64,000 nt of DNA, from positions 59,674 through 123,673 of the forward strand of contig BTWA01000008.1 in assembly GCA_045863295.1 (NCBI GenBank). The letters are read 5' to 3'. Of the stretch, positions 4,101-30,917 are shown piece by piece. The stretch is from Candidatus Hydrogenedentota bacterium (GTDB taxonomy: Bacteria > Hydrogenedentota > Hydrogenedentia > Hydrogenedentales > SLHB01). The notes under the pieces are model-generated. The model was given only the letters and a program-made list of their open reading frames with translations, was not told the origin of the DNA and made no database searches. The translations under genes were made by a program, and so were the position numbers. Each line of letters begins with the position of its first letter. Position 1 is the first letter of the stretch.

Positions 4101-5170
4101 TGCTCACGCCTTGGGCGCGCGTTGAGGGCATGGTACATCTCGCGGCGGATGCGGAGAAGAATGCGATGATGCAATTGAAGCCGCTGTCGCAAGAGGACTA
4201 CGCGGAATCGGGAAGGGTCTACTGGATGTTCAGTCAGACCGCGCACGTGGACGGAAGGTTCGAGTTCGATCGCGTGCCGTCTATTCCGCTGGAAGTGGGC
4301 CGGATGGTGATTGCCGCGCAACGCGCGGAATTGTCGCACACCACGACGCTCACGCCCGCGCCCGGCGAAACGAGCATCGTGCACATCGGCGGCGATGGCG
4401 CGGTCGTGGAAGGGTCCATCGATCTCGCCGCCTTGAGCGAAACCGGTAGGAAGGCCTTTGATCCAAAGCACATTCGCGCGGCGGCGGTGCTTGTAAACGG
4501 AACTGGCAACGCACCCGCTTCGCGATACGTGCCGCAATTCAAAGAAGACGGATCGTTTCGAATCGACGGAATGCCGCGGGGCGATTATGAAATGGAATTC
4601 TTCTTCCACGCCCCTCCCTCCCGCTATGTGTGCGGGTCCGGCATACTGCTCGCCACCGCTACGGCATCCTTTTCGGTGGCGAAAGGCATCAGGGGTGAGA
4701 CCGTGGTCATCCCGGCGATTCCAATGGAAGAGCCCAACACCCCGCAAACAGGCGGAACCGCGCCTGCGCTGCTCGCCTTTACTTTGGACGGCCGGGAGTT
4801 CTCCCTGGAATCGCTGCGCGGAAAGACCGTGCTCCTCGATTTCTGGGCGACGTGGTGCCCTCCCTGCCGTGACATGACGCCAAAGCTGAAGGCGCTATAC
4901 GATGCCATCGGCGCAGCCGAATCGCTTGCGTTTGTGGGGCTATGCTTTGACGAACGCAAAGAGGCGGCACAGAAATACGCAAGCGAATCGGGAATGACTT
5001 GGCCGCAATTGATGACGGACAAATGGACTCCGGAAAACGTTACCTTGCGTGAATTCGGCGTTACCAGCATTCCATCCCTGTGGGTCCTCGGCCCCGATGG
5101 CACCGTGCTTGGACGTGACTTGACCCTGGAGGAAGCCGAAGTGCTCCTGCGCGAAGCATCCAACCCGTGA
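1187..5170 (+). CDS. ECF sigma-70 factor fused to a TM helix, carboxypeptidase-regulatory-like repeats and a C-terminal TlpA/thioredoxin domain
   Basis: Sigma region 2 (RHSRMVYNTCLRVLGNASDAEDVAQECF) and region 4 (LPDDVQAVLVAHFFEGRTHESIA); Ala-rich linker; TM KVAIGVAVMAVSATPFFW; repeated GxVxDxxGxP units; LLDFWATWCPPC. Confidence 0.9.
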   Translation: MNTTDSILLQRWAANHDAEALHEIVSRHSRMVYNTCLRVLGNASDAEDVAQECFVKLARGVKPRGDSLAGLLHTMATNMALNRIKMESRRRAREKRYTDQLDQTVEITWEDVQLHVDEALAELPDDVQAVLVAHFFEGRTHESIAMDEGVTRSAITHRVGKGVDLLRAKLARRGVTVAGGALAALLEAAPAEAAAPSLAIALGKLAMAGTAGTAVATGVGGLSIAAKVAIGVAVMAVSATPFFWRYAGPSVGSGQLDVDEVATAQAQPEPPAPQLAAAAKPNDEPGKAPDGIEIETVTVSDTGFVRGGVHWTNDWPYGKFRGETTDRDGKATLTVQPDGSESWMAFSQNTTKCALVRFSRADAEKPRQIALTLNSAALYGRIVGPDGSGVGKAQVQLRYTAEDGEEFLSAPITANKYGYYGSESLPTADHWSLSVRVVPPGDEPAGPWSEPMPLMSKCTAITFPDVAVSAETAANIEANQVLEGFRERIYETGPVVAYGGFVRDEAGAPVTFASVELMHDVPSGMVTTSQAMTDEKGHWTRMLPENVTGLQVRVQHPQFIPTTVDEEYKDPPLARMKDGTSEIRLRRGRTVKGLVQNEKGEPIPDALVLCGRFYSYTPGGYEPNASTPIEDMTTTRTNANGEFELACLAPGEVTMPVSAKGYAPAIAKLSVGETANEIQVTLPKGGTVKGRIVDTQGNPLSGGYAYGNQWVMDQQYQISMSALADENGQFVLDNVPMEGTVSLSFGVRGIDGRRDRRFLSMTSNEMTPREEPYVITMYMPPVFKGKVVDDETGQPVTDFWVKNGWIFSNSESVDWIQMSSPSHFENAADGSFEKKVDGVHLSYPINVTFVVGVFADGYYESVSPAMQPGEELAPFEIRLKKGAPVTGRVADAQGNPVAKANVVWVGSNTKAFVENAIVAPRYGGQPEFTVETGDDGLFSLQRNAESGIVLVLHESGYAHINATEHAPGGDVLLTPWARVEGMVHLAADAEKNAMMQLKPLSQEDYAESGRVYWMFSQTAHVDGRFEFDRVPSIPLEVGRMVIAAQRAELSHTTTLTPAPGETSIVHIGGDGAVVEGSIDLAALSETGRKAFDPKHIRAAAVLVNGTGNAPASRYVPQFKEDGSFRIDGMPRGDYEMEFFFHAPPSRYVCGSGILLATATASFSVAKGIRGETVVIPAIPMEEPNTPQTGGTAPALLAFTLDGREFSLESLRGKTVLLDFWATWCPPCRDMTPKLKALYDAIGAAESLAFVGLCFDERKEAAQKYASESGMTWPQLMTDKWTPENVTLREFGVTSIPSLWVLGPDGTVLGRDLTLEEAEVLLREASNP

Positions 5171-5282
5171 GGAATCGGATGATCGATTTCGGGCCGCGTG
5201 GTCATGATATACTGCGCAACAGGATTCCCGTTGCCGGGGCAACGCGAAATTCACCAAGTCAGATTTCCGATGGAGACTGATC

Positions 5283-5627
5283 ATGGCCTTCAAGAAATCC
5301 GATTTCAAAATGCGTATACGCGAGGAAGCCCATCGCAAGGTAAAGCCGCAAGGCGGCGCGAAAGGTCAAGCGGGCTTTCGCGACGCGGTGGAACGGGGCC
5401 GTCGTGAATTGCTGCTGAAAGGCGACGAAGGCGGAGACAGCAAGGCCCAACGCATCAAAGGCGAATTACTGTACCTGATTAACAACTACGTACCCGCCAA
5501 CGATGCCCGTATCGAAACGCTAATCGATCAGTGGCGAACCAGCGGCGACCCATCCTATTCGACCGACATTCGCGCCAAGTTCTTGCGCGCCCGCCGCGAC
5601 TACAGCAAGAAAAGCGACGCGCTGTAA
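5283..5627 (+). CDS. Hypothetical protein (114 aa)
   Basis: GGAGA RBS upstream; protein-like composition. Confidence 0.7.
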   Translation: MAFKKSDFKMRIREEAHRKVKPQGGAKGQAGFRDAVERGRRELLLKGDEGGDSKAQRIKGELLYLINNYVPANDARIETLIDQWRTSGDPSYSTDIRAKFLRARRDYSKKSDAL

Positions 5628-5686
5628 GACGCGCCCCGCCTTGCCAGACCCGCATCCGTGCACACTCAATACTGGCCAAACCCAGT

Positions 5687-5716
5687 TTGTACCGCACTCG
5701 ATTTAATTGCTATACT
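5687..5716 (+). promoter_or_regulatory. Sigma70-type promoter of tRNA-Val
   Basis: TTGTAC-N18-TATACT with extended -10 TG, 17 bp before the tRNA. Confidence 0.55.
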
Positions 5717-5733
5717 CCCACATTCCCACCTCG

Positions 5734-5810
5734 GGGCGGTTAGCTCAGTTGGTTAGAGCATCTGCCTTACACGCAGAGGGCCAAAGGTTCGAGTCCTTTA
5801 CCGCCCACCA
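5734..5810 (+). tRNA. tRNA-Val(TAC)
   Basis: Acceptor GGGCGGT/ACCGCCC-A-CCA; anticodon arm TCTGC-CTTACAC-GCAGA; T arm AAAGG-TTCGAGT-CCTTT. Confidence 0.97.
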
Positions 5811-7442
5811 TTTTTCTACCCCGTTTTTTTCTTGGGTTTTCTCAAAACCCCTGTCTTTATTGGCCGATCCGCGTGTCGTGTCCGATGCACTAGGTAATGT
5901 CTTATTTGTTGCAATATGTGACTCAGATTGACTCGAAATGTCACCGTTTGGGGAAGAATTGGGGAAGGAATGGGGGAAGGAATTCGCGGGGGCATCTGCC
6001 GATCCGTGTGCCGCTTGGGCAACGTCTTGCCCTTGGGCTTCGCCGCCGATCCATGGCAAGGATTCCACCGCGCCGCGCATATCGAGGGCTTGCGGGTCCG
6101 TGTAGGTTTGCATCGTTAGGCGAATGTCCGAATGCCGCGCCAATGCCTGGGCCGTCCGTGGGGCCACGCCCGCCGCGTTCATCCACGAGATGCACGTCAT
6201 GCGAAGGCTATGCACGTCCACCGTGCGCCCGCGCTGGTCTCGCTTGGCAATGCCCGCCGCCTTCAAGTCGAGGTTGAAGGGCTTGATCATCTTCAAGGGC
6301 AAGTCATCGAACAATCGGGATTGCGGGTCCAATGCCATCGGGAAGGGCCGCCGGGCCGCTTGTGCGCCTTCCTGGGCCGTTTTCAGCCGTAGGGCAAGAT
6401 ATTCGCGCAAGGCTTCGCAGACTTCGCCACGCAGGGGCACCGTGGCCGCTTGCCGGTTCTTTGCGTTTGCCGCCGCAAGGTGCAATCGCTTGCCGGGCAA
6501 GTCGAGGTCACACACGCGAAGCGAATGAAGTTCGCCCATGCGCAAGCCGCTATAGATCGCCGTTGTGTAGAAGGCCGCGTTCCGTTCGCCATGCAATCGC
6601 GCCGCTGCCAAGACGTGGGGCCGTGGATTCGCCTTGTGGGGTTTCCGTTCCTTGGGGGCCGCGCCCTTGGGCTTGCGTCCGCCGTGGTTATAAAGCACTT
6701 CGTATGTGGGCCGTTGCCGGGCCGCTTGAATGAGCCGGGCCGCTTCATCCGGGGTCAAGGCCCGCCGTTGCCGCCGTTGATCCACCGCTTCGCTTGCGCG
6801 ATCCATCCGGGCGAAAGGGTTCGCCGTATGCCGCCCCGTTTCGAGTAGCCAATTCCCGAAGGCCGTCAAGGCGATTACGTGGGCATTGTGCAGACGCGCA
6901 CCCATGGGGTTGCCAGACTGCCGCCGTTGTTCGTGAAGCCATCGCATCGCGCCTTGTCTGTCGAGGTCGGCAATGCGCCGGAAGCCGCAACCGTTGATCA
7001 CGCGGTTCAAGTATCGCGCCACACTGGCAACATGCTTCGAGGTTGCGCCGCGCAATTCGAGGGCTTGCCGGTAGGCTTCAACGTGGGCCGTCAAGGGCAC
7101 CGCCGCATGCTGGGCCGCCTTCGCTTCCGAGGGCGATACAAGGCCCGCCCGGATTCGTTCCGCTTCGCCTTCCCATTTGGAAAGCACCGCCGCCGCCGCG
7201 CTCTTGTCTTTACAGCCCGTGGATCGTTCGATCACCGTGTCATCGCCGCCGCGATACTTCGCCACCCATGCCGGGCTTGTGCGTTGAATCCGCAAGGCAT
7301 CGCCTTTGCCGCTCACAACCGGGGCCGTCTGTGTCTTGCCCTGGGCATCGATCCACCGCGCAAACCGCTTGCCCTTCGAGGTGAACAATTCCGCGCCGTC
7401 TGGCATCGGGGCCGTGTATTTCTTGCGAATCAGGCTTGCCAT
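5745..7442 (-). CDS. int: Tyrosine recombinase/integrase; reads antisense through the att core into the tRNA
   Basis: Catalytic motifs YSGLRMGEL (R), AKNR (K), HSLR (HxxR), ARHS and MQTY. Confidence 0.92.
   Translation of the reverse strand: MASLIRKKYTAPMPDGAELFTSKGKRFARWIDAQGKTQTAPVVSGKGDALRIQRTSPAWVAKYRGGDDTVIERSTGCKDKSAAAAVLSKWEGEAERIRAGLVSPSEAKAAQHAAVPLTAHVEAYRQALELRGATSKHVASVARYLNRVINGCGFRRIADLDRQGAMRWLHEQRRQSGNPMGARLHNAHVIALTAFGNWLLETGRHTANPFARMDRASEAVDQRRQRRALTPDEAARLIQAARQRPTYEVLYNHGGRKPKGAAPKERKPHKANPRPHVLAAARLHGERNAAFYTTAIYSGLRMGELHSLRVCDLDLPGKRLHLAAANAKNRQAATVPLRGEVCEALREYLALRLKTAQEGAQAARRPFPMALDPQSRLFDDLPLKMIKPFNLDLKAAGIAKRDQRGRTVDVHSLRMTCISWMNAAGVAPRTAQALARHSDIRLTMQTYTDPQALDMRGAVESLPWIGGEAQGQDVAQAAHGSADAPANSFPHSFPNSSPNGDISSQSESHIATNKTLPSASDTTRGSANKDRGFEKTQEKNGVEKWWAVKDSNLWPSACKADALTN
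5947..5983. repeat. Putative integrase arm-type sites, left set (3 x GGGGAAG)
   Basis: TTTGGGGAAGAA-TTGGGGAAGGAA-TGGGGGAAGGAA; the same motif recurs at 10743-10766. Confidence 0.55.
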
Positions 7443-7512
7443 GATCGTGTGATTCCTTTCCGGTTGCCGGGCCGAATCCTAACGCGACAAACGCAAGGCT
7501 GCAAGTTCGTGG

Positions 7513-7743
7513 TCATCGCCGGGGCCGTGTTGTGCGAACGTCCGGGCATCCATCCGCAATCCATTGTTCGATTTCCGCAATGCGCCACCGCACCGCGCCG
7601 CCAATGCGAATAGGCCGGGGCATCGCGCCCTTGTCGCGCATGCGAAACACTTGCCGCGTGGAAATGCTGCATGCTTGCGCCACGTCTTTGGCCGTCCAGA
7701 GTAGGCCGGTTTGCCGTACATCGTTTTCATGGGGTCCGTGCAT
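7513..7743 (-). CDS. AlpA-family excisionase/regulator
   Basis: LLWTAKDVAQACSISTRQVFRMRDKGAMPRPIRIGGAVRWRIAEIEQWI; directly upstream of int. Confidence 0.88.
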   Translation of the reverse strand: MHGPHENDVRQTGLLWTAKDVAQACSISTRQVFRMRDKGAMPRPIRIGGAVRWRIAEIEQWIADGCPDVRTTRPRR

Positions 7744-7804
7744 ACTGTTTTTGATTCCTTGATTTAACGTGCGAACGGGGTCACTGGCGGTACACTGTGA
7801 GCGA

Positions 7805-7984
7805 TCACGATCTTTTACCCCCCATTGGGGGCCGGGGCTTGTCCGCGCATTGCACCGTGGGTTTGCCGCGCAACGGAATGCCGGGGCCGATCAATGCCCG
7901 CGCCTTGCGTTCCGCATCGCTTGGATCGCTTGCCCAAACCCGCGCCACCGGGCCGCGCTTGAATGTGACAATGTATCGAGTCAT
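7805..7984 (-). CDS. Small hypothetical protein (59 aa, MTRYIVTFKRGPVARVWA...)
   Basis: Translated by hand (below the track cutoff); GGAG RBS; same strand as neighbours. Confidence 0.45.
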   Translation of the reverse strand: MTRYIVTFKRGPVARVWASDPSDAERKARALIGPGIPLRGKPTVQCADKPRPPMGGKRS

Positions 7985-8062
7985 CCGCCATTCTCCGGTT
8001 GTGTGTGTAACCGATACGCTACGTCCAATTTCGCGGGTTCACGCATGCGACGTTCTCCGCGC

Positions 8063-8947
8063 TCAATCGCCGCTGGGGTCTGAGTTTTCGATACCCCTTG
8101 CCCGGCATGATCCGTGTGTAAGTTGAACCCACGCTGACAGGTGTTTTAGGAATGGATTCGAGTCGTTCGCGCATTTGAGCGACATTCGCACCCCGTCCGC
8201 CGCTTGACTTGGATCAATGTGCATCAGAATTCGCGCCGCTTCAGTTCGATCCCGGCCAACTATGCCAAAGCCATCCAAAATCGCATCCAATGCGCCCGGG
8301 GTACAGCAATCATCGGCATTCGCAGACTTAGGCTGGATGGTACTTATACTGATCGGCGCACTTCGTGCGGGAGAGAATCCCGAATCTGGATCATGTATCG
8401 GCGCATTCTGTGCGGGAGGTTGTTTCTCACACCCGGAGGTATCGGCGCATTTCGTGCGGGACATATCGGCGCACTTGGTATGTGAGCATTTTTTCACCCT
8501 GTAGTCTGTACGTCTAATCCGTTTTCCGTTTGCTCTTGCTTTTCGGCTTGTGATTTGAACCTGAATTTTCGGGTTAATAGTGGCGTCCTTCCACCGAATC
8601 GATGCTTCGTACCGCCGTGGTGCGCCTGCACGCGATTCTTGAATGTCCGCTGGGGCATCGAAGAAGCCCGCTATACAGATTTCCTTCACCGCTCTATGAA
8701 AGGCCCGCTCGCTGAAAGGCAATTCGCCTGTATAGGCGAAGATGAACACGGCATTACACGTGTCCCACTTGCTTGCGCGATAGTAGGCGAGAGCCATGTA
8801 GGGGAACACAGCCTTAGCCATTAATGAGAGTTGAAAATACGCAGGACAGTCGAGTAGGTCACATCTAAGAGGGACAGACTTTCCACTTCCAAGAAACCCG
8901 CGAATATTCGAGTTGCTTTTCCCGGTCTTTTGATTCTTCCTTGCCAT
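8063..8947 (-). CDS. Putative replication initiator (wHTH, phage O-like layout)
   Basis: Homologous to 13229..14092; contains internal DNA iterons; follows the DUF1580 gene. Confidence 0.6.
   Translation of the reverse strand: MARKNQKTGKSNSNIRGFLGSGKSVPLRCDLLDCPAYFQLSLMAKAVFPYMALAYYRASKWDTCNAVFIFAYTGELPFSERAFHRAVKEICIAGFFDAPADIQESRAGAPRRYEASIRWKDATINPKIQVQITSRKARANGKRIRRTDYRVKKCSHTKCADMSRTKCADTSGCEKQPPAQNAPIHDPDSGFSPARSAPISISTIQPKSANADDCCTPGALDAILDGFGIVGRDRTEAARILMHIDPSQAADGVRMSLKCANDSNPFLKHLSAWVQLTHGSCRARGIENSDPSGD
8352..8484. repeat. Iteron-like repeats (4 x about 20 bp, ATCGGCGCAyTyyGTGCGGG); putative ori
   Basis: Copies at 8352, 8397, 8441 and 8465 (the last degenerate). Confidence 0.7.
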
Positions 8948-9065
8948 CGCTCATGCTTTCAGCCTTGCACGAACGGCGCATATCATGGCAGAATTCCAAT
9001 ACAAGAAATCGCCTAGTATATGGCCGCGATACCCTGCAAGTGCTACCCGCTTGCGGGGTTTCGTG

Positions 9066-9263
9066 TTATTGGCCGCTGATTTCGTGCAGGAAAGATTCGA
9101 GGTCGTGGGATGCAACGAAAAGCCGCCCACCCACGCGGTTAACTGCAAGCCGCCTGCCACCTACCCCTTGCTTTGCCCAACGCCACAACGTTGCGCGGTG
9201 GATCCGTGTGCCCATGGTTTGGTGAATGTAGTGGGCCGCTTCGCTCAGTGTGAAGTTTTTCAT
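9066..9263 (-). CDS. DUF1580-like HTH protein
   Basis: TLSEAA...HRATLWRWAKQGVGGRRLAVNRVGGRLF...LESFL; paralog of 14083..14427. Confidence 0.8.
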   Translation of the reverse strand: MKNFTLSEAAHYIHQTMGTRIHRATLWRWAKQGVGGRRLAVNRVGGRLFVASHDLESFLHEISGQ

Positions 9264-9354
9264 GACTCATGCTCCAAGGTTTACGGTTGCGTCAAACACA
9301 ACTGAAGTTAACCATGAAACAGAAGAGTTGGAAAGAGCTTGGAGAGGCAATATA

Positions 9355-9408
9355 GGACAAATACTAGCAGTGTCCCATGAAAATGGGACAAATACTAGCA
9401 GTGTCCCA
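9355..9408. promoter_or_regulatory. Tandem palindromic operator-like repeat
   Basis: GGACAAATACTAGCAGTGTCCCA exactly at 9355 and 9386; each copy is a GGACA-N11-TGTCC inverted repeat. Confidence 0.65.
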
Positions 9409-10039
9409 AGTCCTTAGATTCCAGTCTGGCAATATTGCGTCCCAAGGTCTTCAAAGACACACGCGGTTTCTCTAACATTGCAATCACTTCCGGCATTGCC
9501 CTGAACCGATCAAACTTCGCCGCACGTTCATATAGAAAAGAATGGGCATACTTTAGCGCCAGATTCCGAGAGGCCGTAGGATTCCGTTGCCGGTATTCTT
9601 GATAGACATTGAACACTTCGGAAAGGATTTCTTCTGGTACTACTGTACCCTTCAATTGGGGACCGCGCTTCGTATCATTTAGATTCTTTTCGCCGCGCAC
9701 TTGCAAGGCTTCGAGACGAATTGCCCTGTCTGCTCCGGGGATTAATTTATCGAAGTCACTAACTGACATCATGAAATGTGGCAACACCATTTCAGTTAGT
9801 TCTTTCAAGAGACTGTCAACTTCCCATCTTCGGTCTGCATTCTCTGGACTGCCGGGGTTTTCCCAGATCACTTCAAGAATTGAACGCAATTCCTGTAATC
9901 GGTGGTCGACTGTTTTTGCAAAATTAATGTGTTCGACAATCCACTTCATTGCTCCATTTGCGTTCAGTTCCATACCCGCGTTTTTGTATAAAGAATCGTC
10001 ATCGTCGGGAAAAATTGCATTGTAATCATCGCGTTCCAT
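9395..10039 (-). CDS. Hypothetical protein (214 aa), possible C-terminal HTH
   Basis: Start MERDD at 10039 with AAGGA RBS; C-terminus VSLKTLGRNIARL. Confidence 0.65.
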   Translation of the reverse strand: MERDDYNAIFPDDDDSLYKNAGMELNANGAMKWIVEHINFAKTVDHRLQELRSILEVIWENPGSPENADRRWEVDSLLKELTEMVLPHFMMSVSDFDKLIPGADRAIRLEALQVRGEKNLNDTKRGPQLKGTVVPEEILSEVFNVYQEYRQRNPTASRNLALKYAHSFLYERAAKFDRFRAMPEVIAMLEKPRVSLKTLGRNIARLESKDLGHC

Positions 10040-10341
10040 GTGCTCACATCCTTTGTCACTTGCAATGCACGCAACATTATAGACGCTTTGGGTCCTTCCT
10101 TCATGCCTTGGCACCGTGCGCCCCTGGAATCGCCAAACTTTTGTGCAGCCGAAGATCATTTTTGCGGGTTCCGGTTTCGAGTTGGGGCTAATTGACTAGC
10201 ATGCGAATCGGTACGCGGGGTATCTAAGTCGTTTAGATTTGAAACCCAAATAGGCAAAAATCGCCCCGCGAACACACAACACTAAACGGGCGGTACGCGG
10301 GCAAGACGGTTCAACCGGCAACCCCCTACCCCCTGGGGCCG

Positions 10342-10554
10342 TCAATGCAATTGCAAGGCTTTGCCGCACCGTCCGCAATAGTTTGCATGTGGCGGGGCAA
10401 TCGTGGGCTTCCCGCACGCGGGGCAAGGGGCCATGTTTTGAACCGGCACGGGTTCAAGGGTAGGGCAATACACGAGGTCATGGTGTGCGCTCATACCGAA
10501 AGGCCCGGCAACCGGGGTCACACCATCGGGGGCATGTGAACGTTTCGAGGGCAT
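10342..10554 (-). CDS. Small zinc-ribbon protein
   Basis: CPACG...YCGRCG; AAGGA RBS right after the stop of the preceding segment. Confidence 0.55.
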   Translation of the reverse strand: MPSKRSHAPDGVTPVAGPFGMSAHHDLVYCPTLEPVPVQNMAPCPACGKPTIAPPHANYCGRCGKALQLH

Positions 10555-10560
10555 GGTCCT

Positions 10561-10824
10561 TTATCCCTTTCCGTTGCCTTCGAGTAGGGCCGCAATGAGC
10601 CGTGCCCGGTCCATTGCGTTCAATGCCCGGAAGGCATCCGCCAAGGCCGCTACGGGGTCCGCCGCCACGCCCTGGGCCGTTGACTCCGTGGGCCGTTCCT
10701 GGGGGCTTGCCGGGGCCGGTTCACCCGCGCCAATTTCGGATTTTGGGGAAGCCACAGGGGAAGGAAAATCCGGGGCACTCGCAAGTGTAGTGCTTTCAAT
10801 TCCTTCCGAGGTGAGGCCGTCTGA
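10561..10824 (-). other. Detached 87-codon C-terminal segment of the island-1 integrase (fused only in the excised attP form)
   Basis: Open from the att core to TAA at 10561 and in frame with int across the CTT of the core. Confidence 0.75.
10743..10766. repeat. Putative integrase arm-type sites, right set
   Basis: TTGGGGAAG and AGGGGAAGGAA, matching the 5947-5983 motif. Confidence 0.5.
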
Positions 10825-10869
10825 CTTACACGCAGAGGGTCGTAGGTTCGAGTCCTACACCGCCCACCA
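10825..10869 (+). repeat. Displaced 3' half of tRNA-Val (attR of island 1, left border of island 2)
   Basis: CTTACACGCAGAGGGTCGTAGGTTCGAGTCCTACACCGCCCACCA; 40/45 identical to 5766-5810. Confidence 0.93.
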
Positions 10870-10872
10870 GTT

Positions 10873-10881
10873 TGGTATAAT
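10873..10881 (+). promoter_or_regulatory. Extended -10 promoter for integrase 2
   Basis: TGGTATAAT (TGnTATAAT) 3 bp after the CCA of the tRNA fragment. Confidence 0.55.
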
Positions 10882-10996
10882 GTAACCCGCGCTGAAATCA
10901 CCGTTTGCGTGATTACCCGCCAAAACGCGGCGCAGCCCAATAGGTCCGGGTTTCGTGGTCAATGACCACAAAACCCCTACTGAGAGGTTTGTGCCC

Positions 10997-12190
10997 ATGG
11001 GTAGACCACGTAACAGAATTCCTTCCCTTCTTCGCCGATTATCCCCCCTTGAACGCGCTTCCGGCGCACCGGGCCGGGCGTTCACCCGGGTCAACGGCCA
11101 AGACCACTATTTCGGTCCATGGGGTACCGACGAAGCACACAGGGCATACCATGCCTTCGTGGCGCAATATGTGGCCGCCGGGTACCGCGTGCCCGTGCCC
11201 GCCGACGAAATCACCATCACGGAACTGTGTGCCGCCTACTGGACATTTGCCAAGGGGTATTACCACTCCGAGGGCGAGCGGTTTATGATTCACCGGGTGT
11301 GCGAGGCGCTCAAGAATCATTACGGCGGGGAACCAGCGGCGGACTTCGGGCCGCTCAAGTGCGAGGCGTTGCTTCACTGGTTTGTGTCCCAAGACCTGAG
11401 CCGCACCGGCGTCAATCACTGCCTGGGCCGCATCAAGCGGCTTCTCCGCTGGGGCGTGACCAAGGAACTGGTGCAACCCGACACCTATGCCAAGGTTGCG
11501 GCGCTGCCGGGCCTCCGGAAAGGCCGAAGCGCGGCGCGTGAGGGGCGCACGGTACTTCCCCCGCCCGTTGCCGACGTGGACGCCCTCTTGGCGGACGAGG
11601 GCACGACGCGGGTTCTTCGCGCACTGGTCACGGTACAACGGCATTCGGGGGCCCGGGCCGGGGAACTCATGAACTTGACGCCGGGCCATATTGACACCGC
11701 AGGGCCGGTGTGGGAAGCCCGGTTGACCGAACACAAGACGGCATACAGGGGCCGTGAGCGGATCTTGTTCTTCGGGCCGGAATGTCAGGCGGTCTTGAAG
11801 CCGTTGATGCTTCGGAAGGCGGACGCTCCGCTGTTCTCCCCCGCCGAAAGCGAAGCGGAACGCCGTGCGTTGATTCACTCCAAACGCAAGACGCCGTTAT
11901 CGTGTGGCAACCGGCCCGGGACGAATCGGGTTGCCAACCCGGAAACCGCTCCGGCGGATCGCTACACCGTGGATTCTTACCGGCGGGCATTGTCCCATGC
12001 GTGCCGTCGGGCCAAGGTGAAGGCATTCAGTCCGCATCAACTCCGGCATCTGGCCGCGACTGAGATTCGCGCTAAGTACGGTCTTGAAGCCGCCCAAGTC
12101 ATGCTGGGCCACGCGGGCATGGCCATTACGCAATTGTATGCGGAACAAGACTTCAATCTTGCCCGCCGCGTGGCTCAGGCCATGGGATGA
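10997..12190 (+). CDS. int: Tyrosine integrase 2
   Basis: SGARAGEL, EHKT, HQLRH, MLGH and QLY motifs; GAGAGG RBS before ATG 10997. Confidence 0.92.
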   Translation: MGRPRNRIPSLLRRLSPLERASGAPGRAFTRVNGQDHYFGPWGTDEAHRAYHAFVAQYVAAGYRVPVPADEITITELCAAYWTFAKGYYHSEGERFMIHRVCEALKNHYGGEPAADFGPLKCEALLHWFVSQDLSRTGVNHCLGRIKRLLRWGVTKELVQPDTYAKVAALPGLRKGRSAAREGRTVLPPPVADVDALLADEGTTRVLRALVTVQRHSGARAGELMNLTPGHIDTAGPVWEARLTEHKTAYRGRERILFFGPECQAVLKPLMLRKADAPLFSPAESEAERRALIHSKRKTPLSCGNRPGTNRVANPETAPADRYTVDSYRRALSHACRRAKVKAFSPHQLRHLAATEIRAKYGLEAAQVMLGHAGMAITQLYAEQDFNLARRVAQAMG

Positions 12191-16362: not shown

Positions 16363-19300
16363 CTACTCTCTTTCGAATCCTTGGCTGGTGAACTTCAACG
16401 TCCGCCCGTTCTCTGTCACCGTTCTAACTACGTTCTCAGGTGCGCCGGATTGAAATTGTGCTTCTATTTCAAGTGTCACGGTGACATCTGCGCCCACCAG
16501 GCCTGCCAAATGCGCGATCACCTCGTCTGCAACCCGGCTTGCGTCGCGCCCAACACGGGCGGGATCCAGCACCACGGTGCCGTGATATCGCTTTGGCCTG
16601 ACTTGAATGGGGGCAGGGGACGCACCCGCGTTTCCAGAATCGCCGCCTGTAGACGGGACTTGAGCATCTCCCGCAACCACTCCCGATTCGCCAGTTGCCG
16701 GGTCCGCTTGGGCTTTGCTGGTCTCCGCCTCCAACTGCTTGCGCGCGACATCCGGCTTGACCAACAGTCCCGGTGCATCCGCGCCAGCCGTGAAAATGGA
16801 TTGTCCCCCGCGCAGACCTCGATAGCGATGCAATTCCTCATCATAAGTGTCCGCAAAGGCGAACGCGTCGTGCTCCCACGTGAGCAACGAGACACCTTCG
16901 TTGACCGCGCCCAAAAGGACGTTCGTATCCCGCAACCGCGGCAGGTAGATGTACCGTGCAAAATCTTCCGCCAACTGCTGCACCGAAACGTGTTCGCCCC
17001 GCCACAACGGTATCTTGTCCAAATCCATCCGTAGCCGCGTCGCCGCCAGTTTGGTCACCAACAGTTCCTCGTGCTTGAGCTTCTTGCTCGCGCGGATAGC
17101 CAGCGGATCCTGCCCGGTCACACGAATGGCATTCCAATGCACCGGGTCCTGGGGCTTGGGTTGCTCAGGAACCAAAAGCCACTGATAGGTTTCCGGAAGC
17201 CTCGCCGTTACCGCGCCATCAGCAGCCGATCTCTGCGTCTCCGCCTGCTTCACCTGGAAGGGCGTCAAACCAAGTTCGGTACGTTCAGTAAGAATGGAAT
17301 CCCAGGCCAGGTACCGTCTGACCGCTTCGTCCAAATCCTGCAGGCGCGTCTTGTCAGCCGCCAGGAACACCAGCGCATTGCGATAAAGGCGTGGGCTGTT
17401 GCCACGCGCCTCCAGCATGGACTTGGCGGCCGCGTCGGCGGAGTTCCCCGCATCCTTGGTGTACGGGTGATCCGGACCTAACACGACCAACCGCGCATCC
17501 ACGTCGTCCGGCACTTCCTGACCAGTCGCAGGCATGGCGTGCACACGGTTAAAGTCGCCCCGTTGTTCGAGGTCCCTCCTGAGCCGCTTCTCCATTTCCT
17601 GCACAACCTTGTCCGATTCGCGCTTCAATTGTTCTGCTCGATCCTCCGCCAACTTCGTGACCGTGGGCTGCGTGGAATACCAATACCTCGGCCCATCCTG
17701 ATACAGATACGTCGCAGCACCGGCCAGCCTGCGCAATGCATCTCCGAACACCGCAGGCGATTCGCCCGGCATCACGCACCCCAATTTCACCCGGCGATCT
17801 TCGATCCCCAAATGCGCAGCGCCGGCCATCGGTGCCGACCCCAGGTAGATCGTCCGTGCCACGCGACGGCATGCGGCAAACTTGCCCAGGTTCGCGATCT
17901 CACCGTCCAGTCGCAGCGGCAACGAATTGGGGCCATCCACATCCTTGGCCAGCACAGGCACCCAGTTATCGGATAAATATCGAGTCAACTCGAATTGCAC
18001 GCGCGAGTCGTCGATGGCAATGTTGGCAGGCAGTATCAAGGGATTCCGGTCGCCCTTCTCCCACAAGCTATGGATCACCGCTGCCATGAGCCGCAGCACG
18101 CCGCGCGTACGTTGAAACTTTATCAACGTCGACCAATCCGTATACAGACGGTCGAATATCTCTGGATGGATCGGATAGGCCGCTTTGATCCGCTTCTCAT
18201 AGTCCGCATCGCGGCATTCGGGAGGAAATTCGGCCTGCTGTGTCCGATACAAGTCGGCAAATTCCCGCGCCACCACGTCCCTGTCCTTGAACTGCTGCGG
18301 ATCGGACATCGGCTCGAACAGGCGCCGCCGCACAATCTCAAAGCCTTCTTCCGCGCTGGCCGGCCGCCATGAAGACTCCACTCGACCGATAACATTCCGC
18401 AACCGGTCCAACGCTTCGCGCCCCCGCTGGCCGCCCACTTCCACGTCGTTGGCCTGCGTATGCGGCGAACCCGTCGTGTCCGATGCGGGCAGGCTGATTA
18501 CCAAGAGACAGTTCTTCGCCAACTTGGCCGATTCCGTCAACACCTGCGCAAACGTGAATTGCGTTTCAAAACTGCCCGCGGGGAGGTCGCTCTGATCGTG
18601 CAACTGCCGCGCATAGGCCACCCACTCATCAATGAGGATCAGGCACGGTCCGTATTCATTGAACATCTCTCGCAGTACATCGCCCGGACTTGTCGCCCTC
18701 TCGTCATCAGCCTTGATGCGCGCGAAGGCCTTCTTGCCCCCTAACTGCCAAGCCAATTCACCCCAGAGCGTGTGCACCACAGTCCCGTCCGCCTTGGTGG
18801 AGGGATTACCCGGCGAGATCTTATTGCCCACCAGCACGGCCCGGCGCACGGACGGCAGCGTATCCGCCGCCGCGCCTTTCATTACGGTGTCGACGCCGGA
18901 CAGTTCGGCGGGACTAATGCCGGAAAATAGGTGATACAGCGCCAGCATGGAGTGCGTCTTGCCGCCGCCGAAGTTCGTCTGCAACTGCACCACCGGGTCG
19001 CCGCCCCCGGCAGTCAACCGTTGCACCGCACCCGTCAGCATGCTCTTTAGGCTCTCGGTCACAAAGGTCCGCCGGAAGAATTCCACCGGATCCTTGTATT
19101 CCGCCGTTCCTTCCCCAACGTGCACCTGCCACAAGTCTGCCGCGAACTCCGCTTGTTGATAGCGCCCGCTGGCCACATCCTTGTGTGGGGTCACCACCTC
19201 GCGCCAGGGTTTCAAATGGCCCGTGGCCGCGCTTTCGATGGCCGTGCCCGAACTCTTCCGCTTTTCGCTTCGTACTTGCTCGTCGAAGCGGAGCCGCAAC

Positions 19301-19716
19301 AGCTCCATCTTCATTCGCTCAATATCTTCCGCTTGCGGCGCGGAAACGGACACCAGCAGCCGCGAAACCGAATCAAGCACACGATACGCATCATCGCTGG
19401 AAAAATTGGCCTGGTGCGCCCACTTGTTGCGCGCGTCTCGAAGTTCGCTCACCATCGACCGTTCAGCGTTCCCAAGCGTGTTCTTGAAAACCAGATTCCA
19501 CTGGTTCCACATCACGCCCAACAATGAAGCGGCATCCCAAGGTGGTTGCTCTTCATCCTTGAAAAGTTTGGCTTGCGAAGGCCCCACGGCGGCCTTTACC
19601 TCGTCGAACCAGGTTTGTTGATGCTGCGCCTTGAGTTCCCGCTCCACAAACGGCTGCAACCCCAGTGTAAGCAATTCCAGCCCCTTGCCGACCCGGTCTC
19701 GATTAGTTATTGCCAT
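16363..19716 (-). CDS. Swt1-type HEPN + DUF499 AAA+ ATPase
   Basis: RNKWAH (Rx4H); LKPWREVVTPH; EFAADLWQV; Walker A FGGGKTH; Walker B LILIDE. Confidence 0.9.
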   Translation of the reverse strand: MAITNRDRVGKGLELLTLGLQPFVERELKAQHQQTWFDEVKAAVGPSQAKLFKDEEQPPWDAASLLGVMWNQWNLVFKNTLGNAERSMVSELRDARNKWAHQANFSSDDAYRVLDSVSRLLVSVSAPQAEDIERMKMELLRLRFDEQVRSEKRKSSGTAIESAATGHLKPWREVVTPHKDVASGRYQQAEFAADLWQVHVGEGTAEYKDPVEFFRRTFVTESLKSMLTGAVQRLTAGGGDPVVQLQTNFGGGKTHSMLALYHLFSGISPAELSGVDTVMKGAAADTLPSVRRAVLVGNKISPGNPSTKADGTVVHTLWGELAWQLGGKKAFARIKADDERATSPGDVLREMFNEYGPCLILIDEWVAYARQLHDQSDLPAGSFETQFTFAQVLTESAKLAKNCLLVISLPASDTTGSPHTQANDVEVGGQRGREALDRLRNVIGRVESSWRPASAEEGFEIVRRRLFEPMSDPQQFKDRDVVAREFADLYRTQQAEFPPECRDADYEKRIKAAYPIHPEIFDRLYTDWSTLIKFQRTRGVLRLMAAVIHSLWEKGDRNPLILPANIAIDDSRVQFELTRYLSDNWVPVLAKDVDGPNSLPLRLDGEIANLGKFAACRRVARTIYLGSAPMAGAAHLGIEDRRVKLGCVMPGESPAVFGDALRRLAGAATYLYQDGPRYWYSTQPTVTKLAEDRAEQLKRESDKVVQEMEKRLRRDLEQRGDFNRVHAMPATGQEVPDDVDARLVVLGPDHPYTKDAGNSADAAAKSMLEARGNSPRLYRNALVFLAADKTRLQDLDEAVRRYLAWDSILTERTELGLTPFQVKQAETQRSAADGAVTARLPETYQWLLVPEQPKPQDPVHWNAIRVTGQDPLAIRASKKLKHEELLVTKLAATRLRMDLDKIPLWRGEHVSVQQLAEDFARYIYLPRLRDTNVLLGAVNEGVSLLTWEHDAFAFADTYDEELHRYRGLRGGQSIFTAGADAPGLLVKPDVARKQLEAETSKAQADPATGESGVVAGDAQVPSTGGDSGNAGASPAPIQVRPKRYHGTVVLDPARVGRDASRVADEVIAHLAGLVGADVTVTLEIEAQFQSGAPENVVRTVTENGRTLKFTSQGFERE

Positions 19717-21915: not shown

Positions 21916-22045
21916 AACCACAGATGAACACAGATGCACACGGATAAGAGCAGGGCCGAGGCTTCGGCCGTTAGCCGGTAGCCGGTAGCCATCTTTCCTC
22001 ACTTCTCTCTCCTCTTTTCTCTCTTCTTCCCATCTGTGGTTCAAT
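21916..22045. repeat. Second REP-like element, right arm shortened by two decamers
   Basis: Arm at 21916-21945; ends CTTCCCATCTGTGGTTCAAT like the 21368 copy. Confidence 0.8.
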
Positions 22046-25000
22046 CACAATTCCAAATCCCCCTGCTCGGGCGTAATCACCCGCTGTTCCCGTGCCAGGC
22101 GCACGATTTCCGGCCAGCTTTGTACCAAGGCGTTGTACGACAGGGCCTCGGCCGATCGTTTTTTGCGCTCGCACAGTGTGTACAGCCGGTACGCCAATTC
22201 CCGGGCCGTTTCCGCCTTGGCCCCTAGCTTGCCTGCGAGTGCGGCCGCGGCCGATTCGCCGCCCCCTTCCAGTACGCGAATAAGGTGGTGCACGGTCTCC
22301 CATACTGTCAGGCGGGTATCCGTGGCCGGGTCCCAGCTCTCGGGCAGTTCCGACGGTTTAAACAACCGCACTTTGCCCTTGCCGGCCTTCAGGATGCCCG
22401 CCTCCACCATGCCGTTCACGCTGGTGTTTTTCGACTTCGACAATTGCTCCGCCACGCCGTACTCGCCTTCCGCGAATCCAAACTGATCGAACCACGCCAA
22501 AGCCCAGCGTGTGTCGGGATCGAAATCGCCTTCCTGTTCGGCGAGGGCTTCATCCAACGTCTGATTGATGAGGGCCAAGGCCTCGCGCACCGTCAGCGGT
22601 TTGCCTTCCGCGTCGAGCACTTTCGCGAATCGCGTATACACGGCCATGCCCGGGCCAATCGCCGCCTGGGCCAAATCCACAGGGGCGATGTTGCCGCGCT
22701 GTAAGTGAAGAAGGGCAGCAGGCAGTTCGGCTTTGAGGGCATTCAGAAATTCGCGCCGCGTGGCGGTCGGCGCCTCTTTCGAACGTGGACGACCCACGAG
22801 CACTATGCTGGAGGCCAGGGCGTTGGTGCCGGACCCAATCATGCGGTTGCTGAGTTCGGTCCGCATGGGCCACGTGCCGCTTATGGCAAACCCCGCTTCG
22901 ATAACCGCCGCCAGGAACGTATCCCAACCCGTGCTGGCGGTACCATCGATTGCGTCGCTCTCGGCTTGCTTGAAAGCATAGTAGATGGTGACGGGGAAAG
23001 CTGGATGCGCCTGTTCGGCGAGACGGCTCATGGCCTGTGTCATGCCATTGAGAAAAAAAGTCTCAGCTTTTTGTTTATTGCCATGGCGATAAGGGGTAGC
23101 AACAAGTTCTTGGGCCTTGGGCACTGCCAACGTGGAGAAATCTTCCGCAAAAGCTGGCTTAAGGGAGCGACGTAGCCAAACATAGAAGAAGTCGGCAAGA
23201 TCAGCATAACCAATATTATCGTAATAAGGCGGGTCTGTAGAAACTACACGATCAGCCGATATAGTTTGAGCCTGCGCATCAGCCTGTTGTGCATACCCAT
23301 GTGGAGACTCTGGAAATGCGCAAATGGCTTTTTTCGCCCATTCAACTCCGCTGGATACGTTGCCCGAAGAATCGGAGAAAATGTTTGTTTCAACGTAGTC
23401 CCACGTCATAGGAATAGCTTGGCGACCAAAAGTATTTCGAATAAGTTCCTTACTCGAATGCCACGTGCAGATCGTTGACCAGTAGTCAGCTGCTTTGTCA
23501 ATGGTAAACGCCAAATACACCGCCACGGCGTCGGCGTAGTCCTGGGCGGTGGGTATGGGTGGGGCGCCTTTGGCGGGTTTGGGGGCGTGTTCGGGGAAAC
23601 CCGCCGCGAGGGCATCCTGCTTCACCCGTACCCGCGCCTCCTGCACCAAATCCGAAAACGTCGTCAACGCCACCAACTGCCGTGGCGTGAACAGGTCGCC
23701 GAACGTGGTGAGGCCGTAATTAGGTGTCTTGAAGTCACGTGGATTGACAGGCAAGGCCAAATCTGGCTTCCATGTTGGCCGTGCCTTGAGAGCGATAGCT
23801 TCCATCTGTGAAGTTGGCGAAAGATATATACGCCCATTCTCACCTTCCGCCACAATAGCCATTAGCCTTGCGCCCATAAAACCCGTCTTGCCTTGATCCC
23901 GAATGTGATCATACGTAACAGGCACGCCTGACATCAGGCAACGAAATGCTGCGCGTTTGCCGGCTGTGGTACCTAGTCTGGCGGCCTCCGCATCCTTTGG
24001 CTTCCCCACTTTGACCGTGAATCGGTAACCGCCGTTTTCTATCACCGGTTCCACGTAGGCTTCCTTGCCCACCTTGGTGGACAGCATAAAGGTTGAGGCC
24101 AAGGGTACATCGACATCCGCATACGCTGGGTTGGGGCTCTTGACGGTGCGCGCCCAAAGCCAGGCGATGACGGTAAGTTCTTTAGCGGTTAGGACGGAGG
24201 ACTTAGGATATAGGGGGACTTTGTCGTGGGGGTTTTTGGCCCAGTAGGTATCGACTTCTTCGCGGGTATAGTAGCGGCTCTTAGCCGGGTCAAAATAGAC
24301 TTTGGCCTTGGGGTATAGGTGGCCAATGCGCTTCTCGGCTTCGTCGCGCATCCATTGACCGTAGTAGCGGACATCGGCGGCGAGTCCGGCTGCGCCTTTC
24401 CATTCTCTAGCGAATAGCAATTGGGAGTTAGGATTTAGGGGGGAGGAGGCAGTCGATTCTAGCGATTCTCGCGAAACTTGCGCCGAAGCGTGCTGAGCAT
24501 CTTGCCCACTTCCACGATCAGACTCCGCGCCACGCTTGTTTCCGTGACTTGCATCCATCCGATCTCCTCGCAAAGCGTGAGAAACGTCTCCGTCTCCGCC
24601 AGGGAACCTTGCGCTATGGCCAGAAACTGAGCCCGCTCCTTTTCGGATTCTCTTGTCCATCCCTCCGCGATGTTGGCTGGCACTGACGCTGCCGCCCGTG
24701 TGATCTGCGAACGCATCCCGTACATTTCTTCCTTGGGAAGATGCGCTACCAGACGATAGACCTCTTTTGCCAGGTCCATCGATTTCCTCCATACCATCAG
24801 TTCTCGATAGTGAAGTCCCATCGCCCCCCCTAAGTTCTAAGTCCTCACCACTTTCTTCCCTACTATGTCCTAAATCCTCTGTTCTACTCGCTCCATTGAC
24901 GGGCGGTTGCCCGGCAAACCGCGGCGGTATCTCGATCATCGCCTTGTTAATCAGCACAGCAACCGGATTCAGATCGCTCGCGTAGGCTTCCAGTCCGAGG

Positions 25001-25452
25001 CGTTGGGCTTCGAGAGGGAGTGCGCCGCCACCGGCAAAGGGGTCGTGGAAAGCGGGGAGTTTGTAACGGTCGAAGAGTTCCTTGGCGCGAGGGTGGTCGG
25101 CGTTCTCGGCGCAGGCGCGGCGCCAGCTTTGCCAGATTTCCTCGCGGGCCTGCTGGAGCACGGCCTCGTTTGTGGTGTTCTCCCATTTGACGAGTTCTTC
25201 AATAATCTTGAACAGGCGCTGCCGTTCCTTGTTCTGCGCCTTTTCCGTGGGGAACAGGTCGGGCCATGCGGAAGGGTCGTCAACCATTTGCGCAAAGATG
25301 ACGGCCCGCGCCGCCGCCAAAGGCCGCCGCGCCCACCAGAGGTGCAACGTGGAAGGATGCCCGTGTCGAATAGACTTCTCCCGCGCGGAAGCCACGTTGA
25401 TCGCTTCCAAAGGCAGGGCCACTTCAATGAGTTTCTTGCGGATCTTGGTCAT
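22045..25452 (-). CDS. DUF1156 amino-methyltransferase with an in-frame insertion of about 154 aa
   Basis: [26 protein letters not shown] (motif I), TDPPYYD (motif IV); alternative start at 25479. Confidence 0.9.
24190..24886. repeat. Nested inverted repeats built from TCCTAA-like heptamers
   Basis: Inner pair 24424-24443 / 24825-24844 (17/20); outer pair 24190-24213 / 24863-24886 (20/24). Confidence 0.75.
24459..24821 (-). CDS. Four-helix-bundle protein (23S rRNA IVS / bAvd-like), nested in the methyltransferase in the +1 frame
   Basis: [18 protein letters not shown]...[26 protein letters not shown]...[14 protein letters not shown]. Confidence 0.92.
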
Positions 25453-25510
25453 ATAACCCACACTTTCAAAACCCCCCATTTCCTAAATCCTATCTTCTAC
25501 CTTCTACCTA

Positions 25511-26173: not shown

Positions 26174-27196
26174 TTATCGTCGGCCTATCACTTCAGTCTC
26201 TTGACCAGCAGCCGCTTTTTTCTCTGACCGCGCGAGTATTTCGTTCGCAAGAGACTTAAAGTCTAGATAGCATTTCGACACCGCCGCGGCATGGGCTCCA
26301 ATTGCTCCATCCGCAGGCGACAATTTGAAAACCGGTTTTCGAGCATCTTCCGCGAGCGGCATCAGGCTTTGGTAGTTCTTAATGAATCCAATCCGATTAG
26401 GGTCGGCCTCGACATTCACCTCAGTGATTGGCTTACGCAGGACATGGGTTGTGTAAACTTGGGGAATCTTGGAAACCCAACGTTGGTAGGCTTTGACAGG
26501 ACGATTCCTTCGCTCAACATGCTGCATGACGACATAACCCGCAGGCGTCATGGAGCCGGACGGCATTGGTATGTTTAGATCTTCAGGCTTCTCATCCAAC
26601 ATTTTTTGCCAATGCTTTCTCCAAGCATCAATGGTTGGGCCGAGGTTCTTCAAACCCTGCAGAGAGAACAGCCCCGGCGCAAGCGGCATTACGATATTAT
26701 CGGATGCAATCAAAGATGCCCGATTGATAGCGCCGAGATTGGGTCCAACATCCATCAGAATAACATCGGCGTCTAAAGATTCCGCTGCATGGTGAACAAT
26801 GCGGTAAAAAGCGGTCGTTGTGCGAAACGCACCTACATCTCCCATAAAACATTTGGGCCACGCCTCGGAGAGTTTGTCCTCGAATCGGGACAGACCCAGG
26901 TCTCCTGGGAGAAGAAATAGATTTGCATTTAGCTTCTGCAATGGAGCAACAGCAATATCCCCCGTGTTTTCGATAAGCGGAGAAATGCAGGCCAAAATGC
27001 TTTTGTTCTCGCCTTCTTCCGGCCATAAGTCTATCAAAGTGTCGTCATCGAGAAACATGCTTGTGAGATTGGCTTGGGGGTCCAAATCAACCGCGAGGAC
27101 CTTTTTGCCTAGTTCGGAACACATCCATGCGAGGTGATATACAAGAGTGGTTTTACCAACGCCGCCCTTGTTATTGAAGAAGGCGATGGTTTTCAT
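26174..27196 (-). CDS. ParA-family ATPase
   Basis: FNNKGGVGKTT, VDLDPQANLT, MDVGPNLG. Confidence 0.9.
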   Translation of the reverse strand: MKTIAFFNNKGGVGKTTLVYHLAWMCSELGKKVLAVDLDPQANLTSMFLDDDTLIDLWPEEGENKSILACISPLIENTGDIAVAPLQKLNANLFLLPGDLGLSRFEDKLSEAWPKCFMGDVGAFRTTTAFYRIVHHAAESLDADVILMDVGPNLGAINRASLIASDNIVMPLAPGLFSLQGLKNLGPTIDAWRKHWQKMLDEKPEDLNIPMPSGSMTPAGYVVMQHVERRNRPVKAYQRWVSKIPQVYTTHVLRKPITEVNVEADPNRIGFIKNYQSLMPLAEDARKPVFKLSPADGAIGAHAAAVSKCYLDFKSLANEILARSEKKAAAGQETEVIGRR

Positions 27197-30368: not shown

Positions 30369-30917
30369 TTACTTGGGTTCGCATCCGTGCTGTTGCCACC
30401 AAATCCTGTCCTGATCGCGTTTGGTCACTGCCCGCGCCTTAATACGTTCGTGTTTTCGCGTTTCCCTTTCTCTACGGTTCTGTTCGTGTTCCAATTTCGT
30501 TCGTTGTAACCGTTCAATGTGGTCACGATAGTGGGCTTGCATGTTGGCCAGGACCTCTCCGCCCCATGTGCCCTCCAGGCATCTTGCTAACTCGAGTTCC
30601 GCATGCACGTCCTTCCCCATTTCCTGCCAAAGGCGATGAATGATTTTCCGCGTGACTGGCTGTAGTTTTTGCGCTTCCTCGATGTCTGGGCAAAAGGATC
30701 TAAATGCATCTATAACTCGGCGGGTTGCGTTTGCCCCCAGCCTTGGGGAGTTTTCATCGCTATACCCCATTGCCTCGAGCAATTTCTGTACAAATACGCA
30801 ACTACAAATACCACAGCCTGGAAAACAGAACTCGACGTCGGCATTGGCATGGAGAAACTCGCAGAACCAATCCCCACATGGGCCAAGAGGCACTGTATTT
30901 CGCGTGTTCGTGCTCAT
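30369..30917 (-). CDS. Hypothetical protein (CPGCGICSC-like Cys cluster, coiled tail)
   Basis: ATGA overlap with the DUF262 gene; CFPGCGICSC. Confidence 0.65.
   Translation of the reverse strand: MSTNTRNTVPLGPCGDWFCEFLHANADVEFCFPGCGICSCVFVQKLLEAMGYSDENSPRLGANATRRVIDAFRSFCPDIEEAQKLQPVTRKIIHRLWQEMGKDVHAELELARCLEGTWGGEVLANMQAHYRDHIERLQRTKLEHEQNRRERETRKHERIKARAVTKRDQDRIWWQQHGCEPK

Follow-up and report, generated by a model that had tools for sequence, protein, structure and literature searches.

What becomes of an integrase when the attachment site that it recombines lies inside its own gene? This question is raised by an integrative element of 5,059 base pairs (bp), bounded by two copies of a short core, that is inserted in the transfer RNA (tRNA) gene tRNA-Val(TAC) of a Candidatus Hydrogenedentota bacterium. 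The stretch of DNA analyzed, here called the window, is 64 kilobases (kb) long (assembly GCA_045863295.1, contig BTWA01000008.1, positions 59,674-123,673), and all coordinates are window positions. Our best explanation as a whole, to which we assign a probability of about 0.7, is that the integrase gene (int) spans its own attP site, that a C-terminal hairpin tail is encoded only in the excised, or joined, form of the gene, and that this hairpin has a function in the enzyme. The argument relies on the following features.

5734..5810, plus strand: tRNA-Val(TAC) at attL, predicted with ARAGORN; a hybrid gene of host 5' half, core and element-supplied 3' half
5766..5780: attL core, a 15-bp identity block and exact duplicate of 10825-10839
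10825..10869, plus strand: attR, consisting of the core (10825-10839) and the displaced host tRNA-Val 3' half
5745..7442, minus strand: integrase, chromosomal (integrated) isoform of 565 amino acids, from the list of open reading frames (ORFs), with its C-terminus antisense through the tRNA gene
10561..10824, minus strand: tail segment of 87 codons plus stop, which continues the int frame once the cores are joined

The tRNA-Val(TAC) gene is the sole tRNA gene in the window. The 15-bp core CTTACACGCAGAGGG occurs in exactly two copies, both on the plus strand; it takes in the anticodon loop, the 3' strand of its stem and the beginning of the variable region. A pattern of 25 nucleotides (nt) taken from the displaced tRNA 3' half matched only the attL and attR copies, with none expected from shuffled sequence, and no third tRNA fragment was found in the window. 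The two 3' halves (5781-5810 and 10840-10869) differ at five positions. These include compensatory changes in the T-stem (AAAGG/CCTTT in the element-borne half, GTAGG/CCTAC in the host half), which indicates that the full gene at attL is a hybrid and that the host's original 3' half lies at attR. As judged from these differences, the working tRNA-Val is probably a chimera whose 3' half came from another lineage. The 3' halves mismatch from their first base rightward and homology ends leftward, so that the crossover is confined to the 15-bp block. The homologous blocks at the two cores contain no indels, and the reading frame is therefore independent of the exact crossover point. The sequence-only reading had placed a 15-bp duplicate at 5766 and 10825 within the integrase gene, with the crossover inside it. 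Both copies do lie in the frame that continues int, and the flanking mismatches to the right and the loss of homology to the left place the crossover as it had proposed.

The gene encodes a tyrosine recombinase of the lambda (heterobivalent) type. The Pfam family Phage_integrase (PF00589) matches residues 284-451 (E value 1.9e-18), and this catalytic domain carries the R, K, H-x-x-R, H/W and Y of that class; among 40 homologues R301, K328, H411, R414 and Y447 are invariant and H437 is nearly so. Past the catalytic domain, the 565-residue frame reads a further 114 codons, crossing the tRNA 3' half in antisense and then the core, and six codons beyond the core it meets a stop antisense to the D-loop in the host tRNA 5' half. 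With the core at about residue 559, integration leaves the catalytic domain (284-451) undivided. Joining the cores opens a frame of 646 amino acids, 87 of them past the core, that stops at 10561-10563. Both forms had been described beforehand, the 565-residue form as antisense to the tRNA with a six-residue tail after the core, the 646-residue form as free of stops with an 87-residue tail, and both were recovered unchanged. After its catalytic domain the joined frame holds 195 stop-free codons, and the other five frames of that stretch contain one to nine stops. Within the window alone the open joined frame is suggestive; it is the related elements that make the case decisive.

In a protein search 8000 candidates were scored, which gave 518 homologues at E <= 1e-10. 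Among the matches listed, the closest share 41-45% identity with the window's integrase, and most are 545-600 amino acids long. The C-termini of 120 listed homologues were screened with regular expressions. Peptides antisense to a tRNA T-loop were present in 97 of them, in all three phases (43 of type GxEP, 41 DSN, 12 IRT and 1 double, with none in the remaining 23). Seven of the 120 are contiguous long forms of 611-683 amino acids (P0050, P0067, P0072, P0097, P0101, P0103 and P0108), which run past the tRNA-antisense peptide into a tail with the helical motif of the window; P0067 was assigned by eye, and the match of P0097 to the tail hidden Markov model (HMM) is weak (E 0.074). A total of 176 related loci were collected from genomes (80), viral contigs (16) and metagenomes (80), a few contigs being present in two collections. 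By record title, the genome loci belong mostly to Planctomycetota (Pirellulales, Gemmatales, Isosphaeraceae, Planctomycetaceae, Phycisphaerae and Kuenenia), with some from Hydrogenedentota. Several family members from IMG/VR are located at the ends of viral contigs of 26-82 kb. When the window is counted with these loci, the int frame ends inside a tRNA gene of the complementary strand in 117 of 177; in 21 the C-terminus is long but no full tRNA is present, and 16 run off the contig. At a single locus, L155, the tail motif is contiguous with int, and there is neither a full tRNA nor a terminal overlap. No second family member was found in the bacterium's own genome of 6.3 megabases (Mb), in which the integrase is single copy, and a tblastn search with int against a phage collection of 50,697 records gave no match.

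Among the 117 integrated loci, 13 had too little upstream sequence and 90 had no second tRNA fragment within at most 10 kb, leaving 14 with attR in reach, namely the window and 13 relatives, as the set in which the cores could be joined. The elements of these 13 relatives measure 6.0-11.2 kb, and their targets are Val(TAC), Val(CAC), His, Arg, Asp, Pro, Ala and Gly tRNA genes. In all 13 the joined frame that continues int is open, for 67-304 codons, and all three phases (0, 1 and 2, counted from the core end) occur among the elements. A tail HMM was built from ten tails, the window's included, and in 11 of the 13 relatives it matches the int-continuing frame exclusively; nine of the 11 matched tails are in its training set, and those of L102 and L104 are outside it. 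The window's tail is matched in the int frame only (E 2.6e-18), and as it is a training row this E value is not independent and it is the frame specificity that counts. Conservation of frame and tail in related elements had been set in advance as the point on which the sequence-only reading should stand or fall. It stood, with an in-frame tail in 13 of 13 relatives and the motif never in another frame. The comparison thus supports a state-dependent swap of the integrase C-terminus, and the suggested effect of the swap on activity would follow by analogy with phage Mx8.

Several of these loci deserve separate description. L117 and L137 (metagenome), which are the two of the 13 relatives without a tail HMM match, and L094 (viral contig) carry a variant tail of the form W-P-x-L-P/S followed by a helix, not the L-S-x-x-D-R type, and this WPxLP-type tail is likewise placed after the arm repeats described below. 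In L019 (3263-4174) the joined tail frame is open for 304 codons, beyond the conserved hairpin, and by its sequence it probably runs into the next gene, either by loss of a stop or by fusion. The L019 cores were joined inside the exact block, since the neighboring mismatch carries the attL stop codon; joined in this way, the frame is open and bears the motif. At L071 (2868-2905) a weaker second tRNA-Ala fragment, 87% identical over 39 nt, lies 1.1 kb past attR, and this similarity hints at an older or tandem insertion.

The conserved part of the tail is short.

10564..10689, minus strand: conserved C-terminal two-helix hairpin, motif type L-x-x-D-R-x-R-L, from the tail HMM, alignment and AlphaFold2

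Of the hairpin codon pairs with the same encoded residue, 387 use one codon and 315 use two synonymous codons; the hairpin is conserved as peptide, not as DNA. For the window's 42-residue tail with nine relatives, AlphaFold2 predicts helices at residues 12-22 and 25-40, with 22 residues at a predicted local distance difference test (pLDDT) score of at least 90. A helical tail domain in the joined form had been proposed, and two helices are indeed predicted with high confidence. The long-form homologue P0101, modeled from an 88-row alignment, has a confident body (residues 15-510) that is predicted to consist of an N-terminal beta-sheet domain, a helical (core-binding) domain and the catalytic domain. 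Residues 514-652 are unstructured in the model (pLDDT < 50), and terminal helices follow at 655-664 and 668-679, with mean pLDDT of 74-93 in 10-residue blocks. The best Foldseek matches of the model are the Brujita integrase, full-length lambda integrase (447 columns) and the Tn1549 integrase. A Protein Atlas search with the tail gave a best score of 0.86, to unnamed clusters, and no lead.

Between the catalytic domain and the hairpin, the translated linker contains direct repeats on either side of the core.

5950..5982: int-side arm, three direct repeats on the plus strand (GGGGAAGGAA twice and GGGGAAGAAT), 11-12 bp apart, inside the int coding linker
10745..10766: tail-side arm, two direct repeats on the plus strand (GGGGAAGCCA and GGGGAAGGAA), 12 bp apart, inside the tail coding linker

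In the window, GGGGAAGGAA is found at 5973 and 5961 with a degenerate third copy at 5950, and on the tail side GGGGAAGGAA is at 10757 and GGGGAAGCCA at 10745; their offsets from the core end are -213, -201, -190, +62 and +74. The word differs from TTGCACCA of the relatives, yet it occupies equivalent places. In most relatives the linker contains the peptide APxxAP, which is TTGCACCA read twice, 12 bp apart, and in most loci this pair is located 170-173 nt from the tRNA 3' end. Its alanine codons are GCA in 193 of 200 cases and its proline codons CCA in 185 of 200, against a background, in the catalytic domains of the same genes, of 774 GCA among 6556 alanine codons and 268 CCA among 2637 proline codons. 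A second pair of TTGCACCA, also spaced by 12 bp, occurs 55-72 nt after the core in another phase, where it is read as VCTxVCT. Because the codons are nearly fixed and the word recurs in another reading phase, the TTGCACCA repeats are DNA elements. They are best read as putative arm-type binding sites of the integrase, carried along as passengers in translation. The linker that joins the catalytic domain to the tail is attP DNA itself and is constrained as DNA. Arm-type repeats flank the core, and the homologue model contains the N-terminal domain that is predicted to bind them.

An attP site within int has been described before in myxophage Mx8. In the available text on this phage, integration exchanges a C-terminal tail of 112 residues for one of 13 and leaves the enzyme less active (PMC4701971), and the accessible portion of a second study links the altered C-terminus to a change in specificity (PMC6070905). 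The first of these sources, as far as it is available, counts very few elements with att sites inside the cognate integrase gene and names Mx8 among them (PMC4701971), and the available part of the Islander paper has the integrases of Mx8 and SSV extending across attP (PMC4383910). The Mx8 enzyme, with its forms IntP and IntX, resembles the present one in being a tyrosine integrase with the attP core inside the int ORF, a tRNA target and a C-terminus that is replaced on integration. Its excisionase gene uoi is annotated just upstream of int, where an AlpA-like ORF is found in our element. By our own count from the sequence, Mx8 Int also has a tRNA-antisense peptide followed by a tail of about 110 residues. 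The Mx8 int gene (L001) contains TGTGACAGCGG twice in tandem (6369-6390) and a third copy of 9 nt at 6582-6590, 200 nt on; these repeats are spaced by 11 bp, bracket the tRNA-antisense segment inside the ORF and resemble the arm layout described above. In contrast, there is no detectable similarity between the two integrase sequences (BLASTP E 0.28), the tail motif is not shared (tail HMM E 4.2), and the host phylum is another, the present family belonging to Planctomycetota and neighbors. Mx8 is moreover a phage, whereas here the arrangement is found in a 5-kb element without virion genes and across a family of hundreds.

Other systems are less close. Archaeal integrases of the SSV or "suicidal" type also have their att site within the integrase gene, which is rewritten when the element inserts in a tRNA gene, according to the available texts (PMC8371274, PMC4383910). 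As the accessible part of one source puts it, however, SSV-type integration parts the N-terminal from the catalytic portion and inactivates the gene, and gene-disrupting integrases are called exclusive to archaea (PMC8371274). Here the split, about 110 residues past the catalytic tyrosine, leaves the chromosomal gene complete, which sets it apart from the SSV type. Lambda integrase is alike in its N-terminal beta-sheet, core-binding and catalytic domains and in having arm-type direct repeats on both sides of the core. The lambda attP lies outside int, whereas in the present element the Int reading frame includes the core and both of its arms. Streptococcal integrative and conjugative elements in rumA also have an att site inside the integrase gene, but the enzyme is a serine recombinase and the target a protein gene; in the available text on them a conserved-tail analysis is not reported. 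The available text of a preprint on the mv4 integrase mentions no overlap of int and attP. Full-text literature searches found no description of this planctomycete integrase family. The sequence comparison confirms that attP within int is of the Mx8 type and already known; what appears to be new is the family-wide evidence and the dissected anatomy.

We propose the following mechanism. In the excised form the last ~200 codons of int are attP DNA. First come the three int-side repeats, then the tRNA 3' half in antisense, where the crossover lies in the anticodon loop, then the two tail-side repeats and last the hairpin. Because the gene of the enzyme contains the enzyme's own substrate, recombination rewrites the 3' end of int. 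Integration cuts the gene at the core, leaving a chromosomal form of 565 residues that keeps the catalytic domain and is without the hairpin. Excision, or a tandem copy, restores the 646-residue form, in which the hairpin is tethered by ~140 flexible residues. In-phase retention over a long, unconstrained linker is costly unless attachment matters, and for this reason the hairpin is probably a working part of Int, most likely one that aids assembly of the integrative complex. With the hairpin lost, the enzyme of the integrated form may be less active, or differently biased or specific, as in Mx8 IntX. Such a tail-less form would stabilize the integrated state, and the AlpA-like protein would supply control of excision. 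That two isoforms are encoded and that the tail is functional seems highly probable to us; that the isoforms differ in regulation, which is argued from Mx8, is only slightly favored. A further and tentative idea, which we consider doubtful, is that directionality is written into the enzyme by the state of its DNA, so that the long form integrates and the short form excises only with the AlpA-like protein. The hairpins would then pair and tether protomers on attP through the flexible linker of ~140 residues. As the arm sites are int codons, the integrase would also bind the DNA that encodes it and restrain its own production.

Several observations weigh against this explanation. A first-order Markov model left the joined frame open by chance in 214 of 20,000 simulations, or ~1%, for the window alone. 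The int frame ends shortly past the catalytic domain in 22 of 177 loci, so that the wider family can do without the tail. Only 1 of 176 loci and 7 of 120 proteins are contiguous long forms, and tandem arrays, not free circles, could be their source. No other tail among the ten diverges as far as the window's, which is 18-38% identical to the other nine. The hairpin is predicted confidently on its own, and the full-length pLDDT is therefore uninformative on whether it docks to the enzyme. Finally, a difference in activity between isoforms is reported, in the available texts, for Mx8 only (PMC4701971, PMC6070905).

It may also be that the swap is real but neutral, with attP placed in the 3' end of int for compaction, the isoforms equal and the hairpin serving a role unrelated to the integration state. 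This would agree with a catalytic domain and a full set of catalytic residues that are unaffected by integration, and with the 22 relatives without any extension. We consider it unlikely, since the hairpin is under constraint at the protein level, is kept in phase with int over ~60-120 otherwise unconstrained codons in 13 of 13 elements, and has a counterpart in Mx8, where the two forms do differ in the available account (PMC4701971). The tail could instead be a small gene of its own beside attR, encoding 64 amino acids from a GTG at 10755, with the int frame a coincidence or read-through junk. A GTG-started ORF can indeed be drawn at 10561-10755, and the next gene on the same strand follows it by 7 bp, but no purine-rich ribosome-binding word was seen by eye before the GTG. 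All 13 relatives, moreover, keep the tail in phase with int despite the varying phase of the core, for which the chance is about (1/3)^13; the frame is open from core to motif, the motif never occurring in another frame; and seven database proteins and L155 hold catalytic domain and tail in one ORF. An independent gene is thus very improbable.

The switch might also be historical in this copy even if it operates in the family, the element being a fixed relic that no longer excises. It is single copy in the 6.3-Mb genome. Of 15 sequencing runs found, the contigs of four were compared with positions 4800-11800; no attP or attB junction was seen in them, though contigs cannot show absence, and one contig in the likely source run spans the integrated form. 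Joints in contigs that skip sequence were ruled out as junctions, as they contain 16-18 foreign letters and belong to tRNAs of other organisms. Against a relic, no damage is seen in int, the AlpA-like gene or the tail frame, nor in either core or any of the five arm repeats, and pieces identical to the element together with host flanks are present in runs of other studies. We therefore regard a relic as rather improbable, and this copy probably still excises. In one run, X1, the 45-nt displaced tRNA half (10825-10869) forms its own contig, with a depth of 24.7 against 12-13 in the flanks; this depth could reflect a second identical copy, for example an unoccupied site or another tRNA gene.

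All ORFs of the element are on the minus strand. Those besides int are as follows.

7513..7743, minus strand: AlpA-like helix-turn-helix (HTH) protein, candidate excisionase or regulator (Pfam Phage_AlpA, E 1.4e-7; PHROG excisionase families)
7805..10554, minus strand: cargo ORFs of 59 amino acids, 294 amino acids, 65 amino acids (DUF1580/HTH), 254 amino acids and 70 amino acids (Pfam, PHROGs)

The AlpA-like ORF is 70 bp upstream of int and has homologues in 70 related loci. The cargo ORF of 70 amino acids has a weak zinc-ribbon match, those of 59, 294 and 254 amino acids matched no Pfam or PHROGs family, and a comparison with the 176 related loci gave no homologue of any cargo ORF. In two relatives the cargo is likewise mostly without known family. 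It includes one NikA-like mobilization accessory protein (L102, 4035-4439, in a 6-kb element), which suggests that some small elements of the family may be mobilizable and not phage-like. Adjoining attR is a second, unrelated tyrosine integrase of 411 amino acids (10955-12190, plus strand), and beyond it a stretch of lower guanine-plus-cytosine content (12700-40400) with defense-type genes, including the following.

16363-19716: HEPN_Swt1+DUF499
22045-25479: DUF1156
within 12700-40400: ParA-like ATPase
27193-28386: Schlafen AlbA_2
30914-32668: GmrSD
36812-40387: SNF2 helicase with NOV_C

The tRNA-Val gene appears to be an insertion hot spot, where the 5-kb element lies beside an older island.

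As read from the sequences, attP within int is the rule in a family of hundreds in Planctomycetota and neighboring phyla, with at least seven tRNA isoacceptor types as targets and a conserved tail. If directionality is indeed written into the enzyme, a self-rewriting, self-sensing recombinase module would be common across Planctomycetota and not the curiosity of one myxophage. For annotation, a long int ORF overlapping a tRNA gene is genuine, a small "hypothetical" ORF at attR is an orphaned tail of an integrase, and the ~140 disordered residues are translated attP, in which one DNA word is read in two frames. With a family of this size, the idea of a self-rewriting gene becomes testable by comparison and at the bench.

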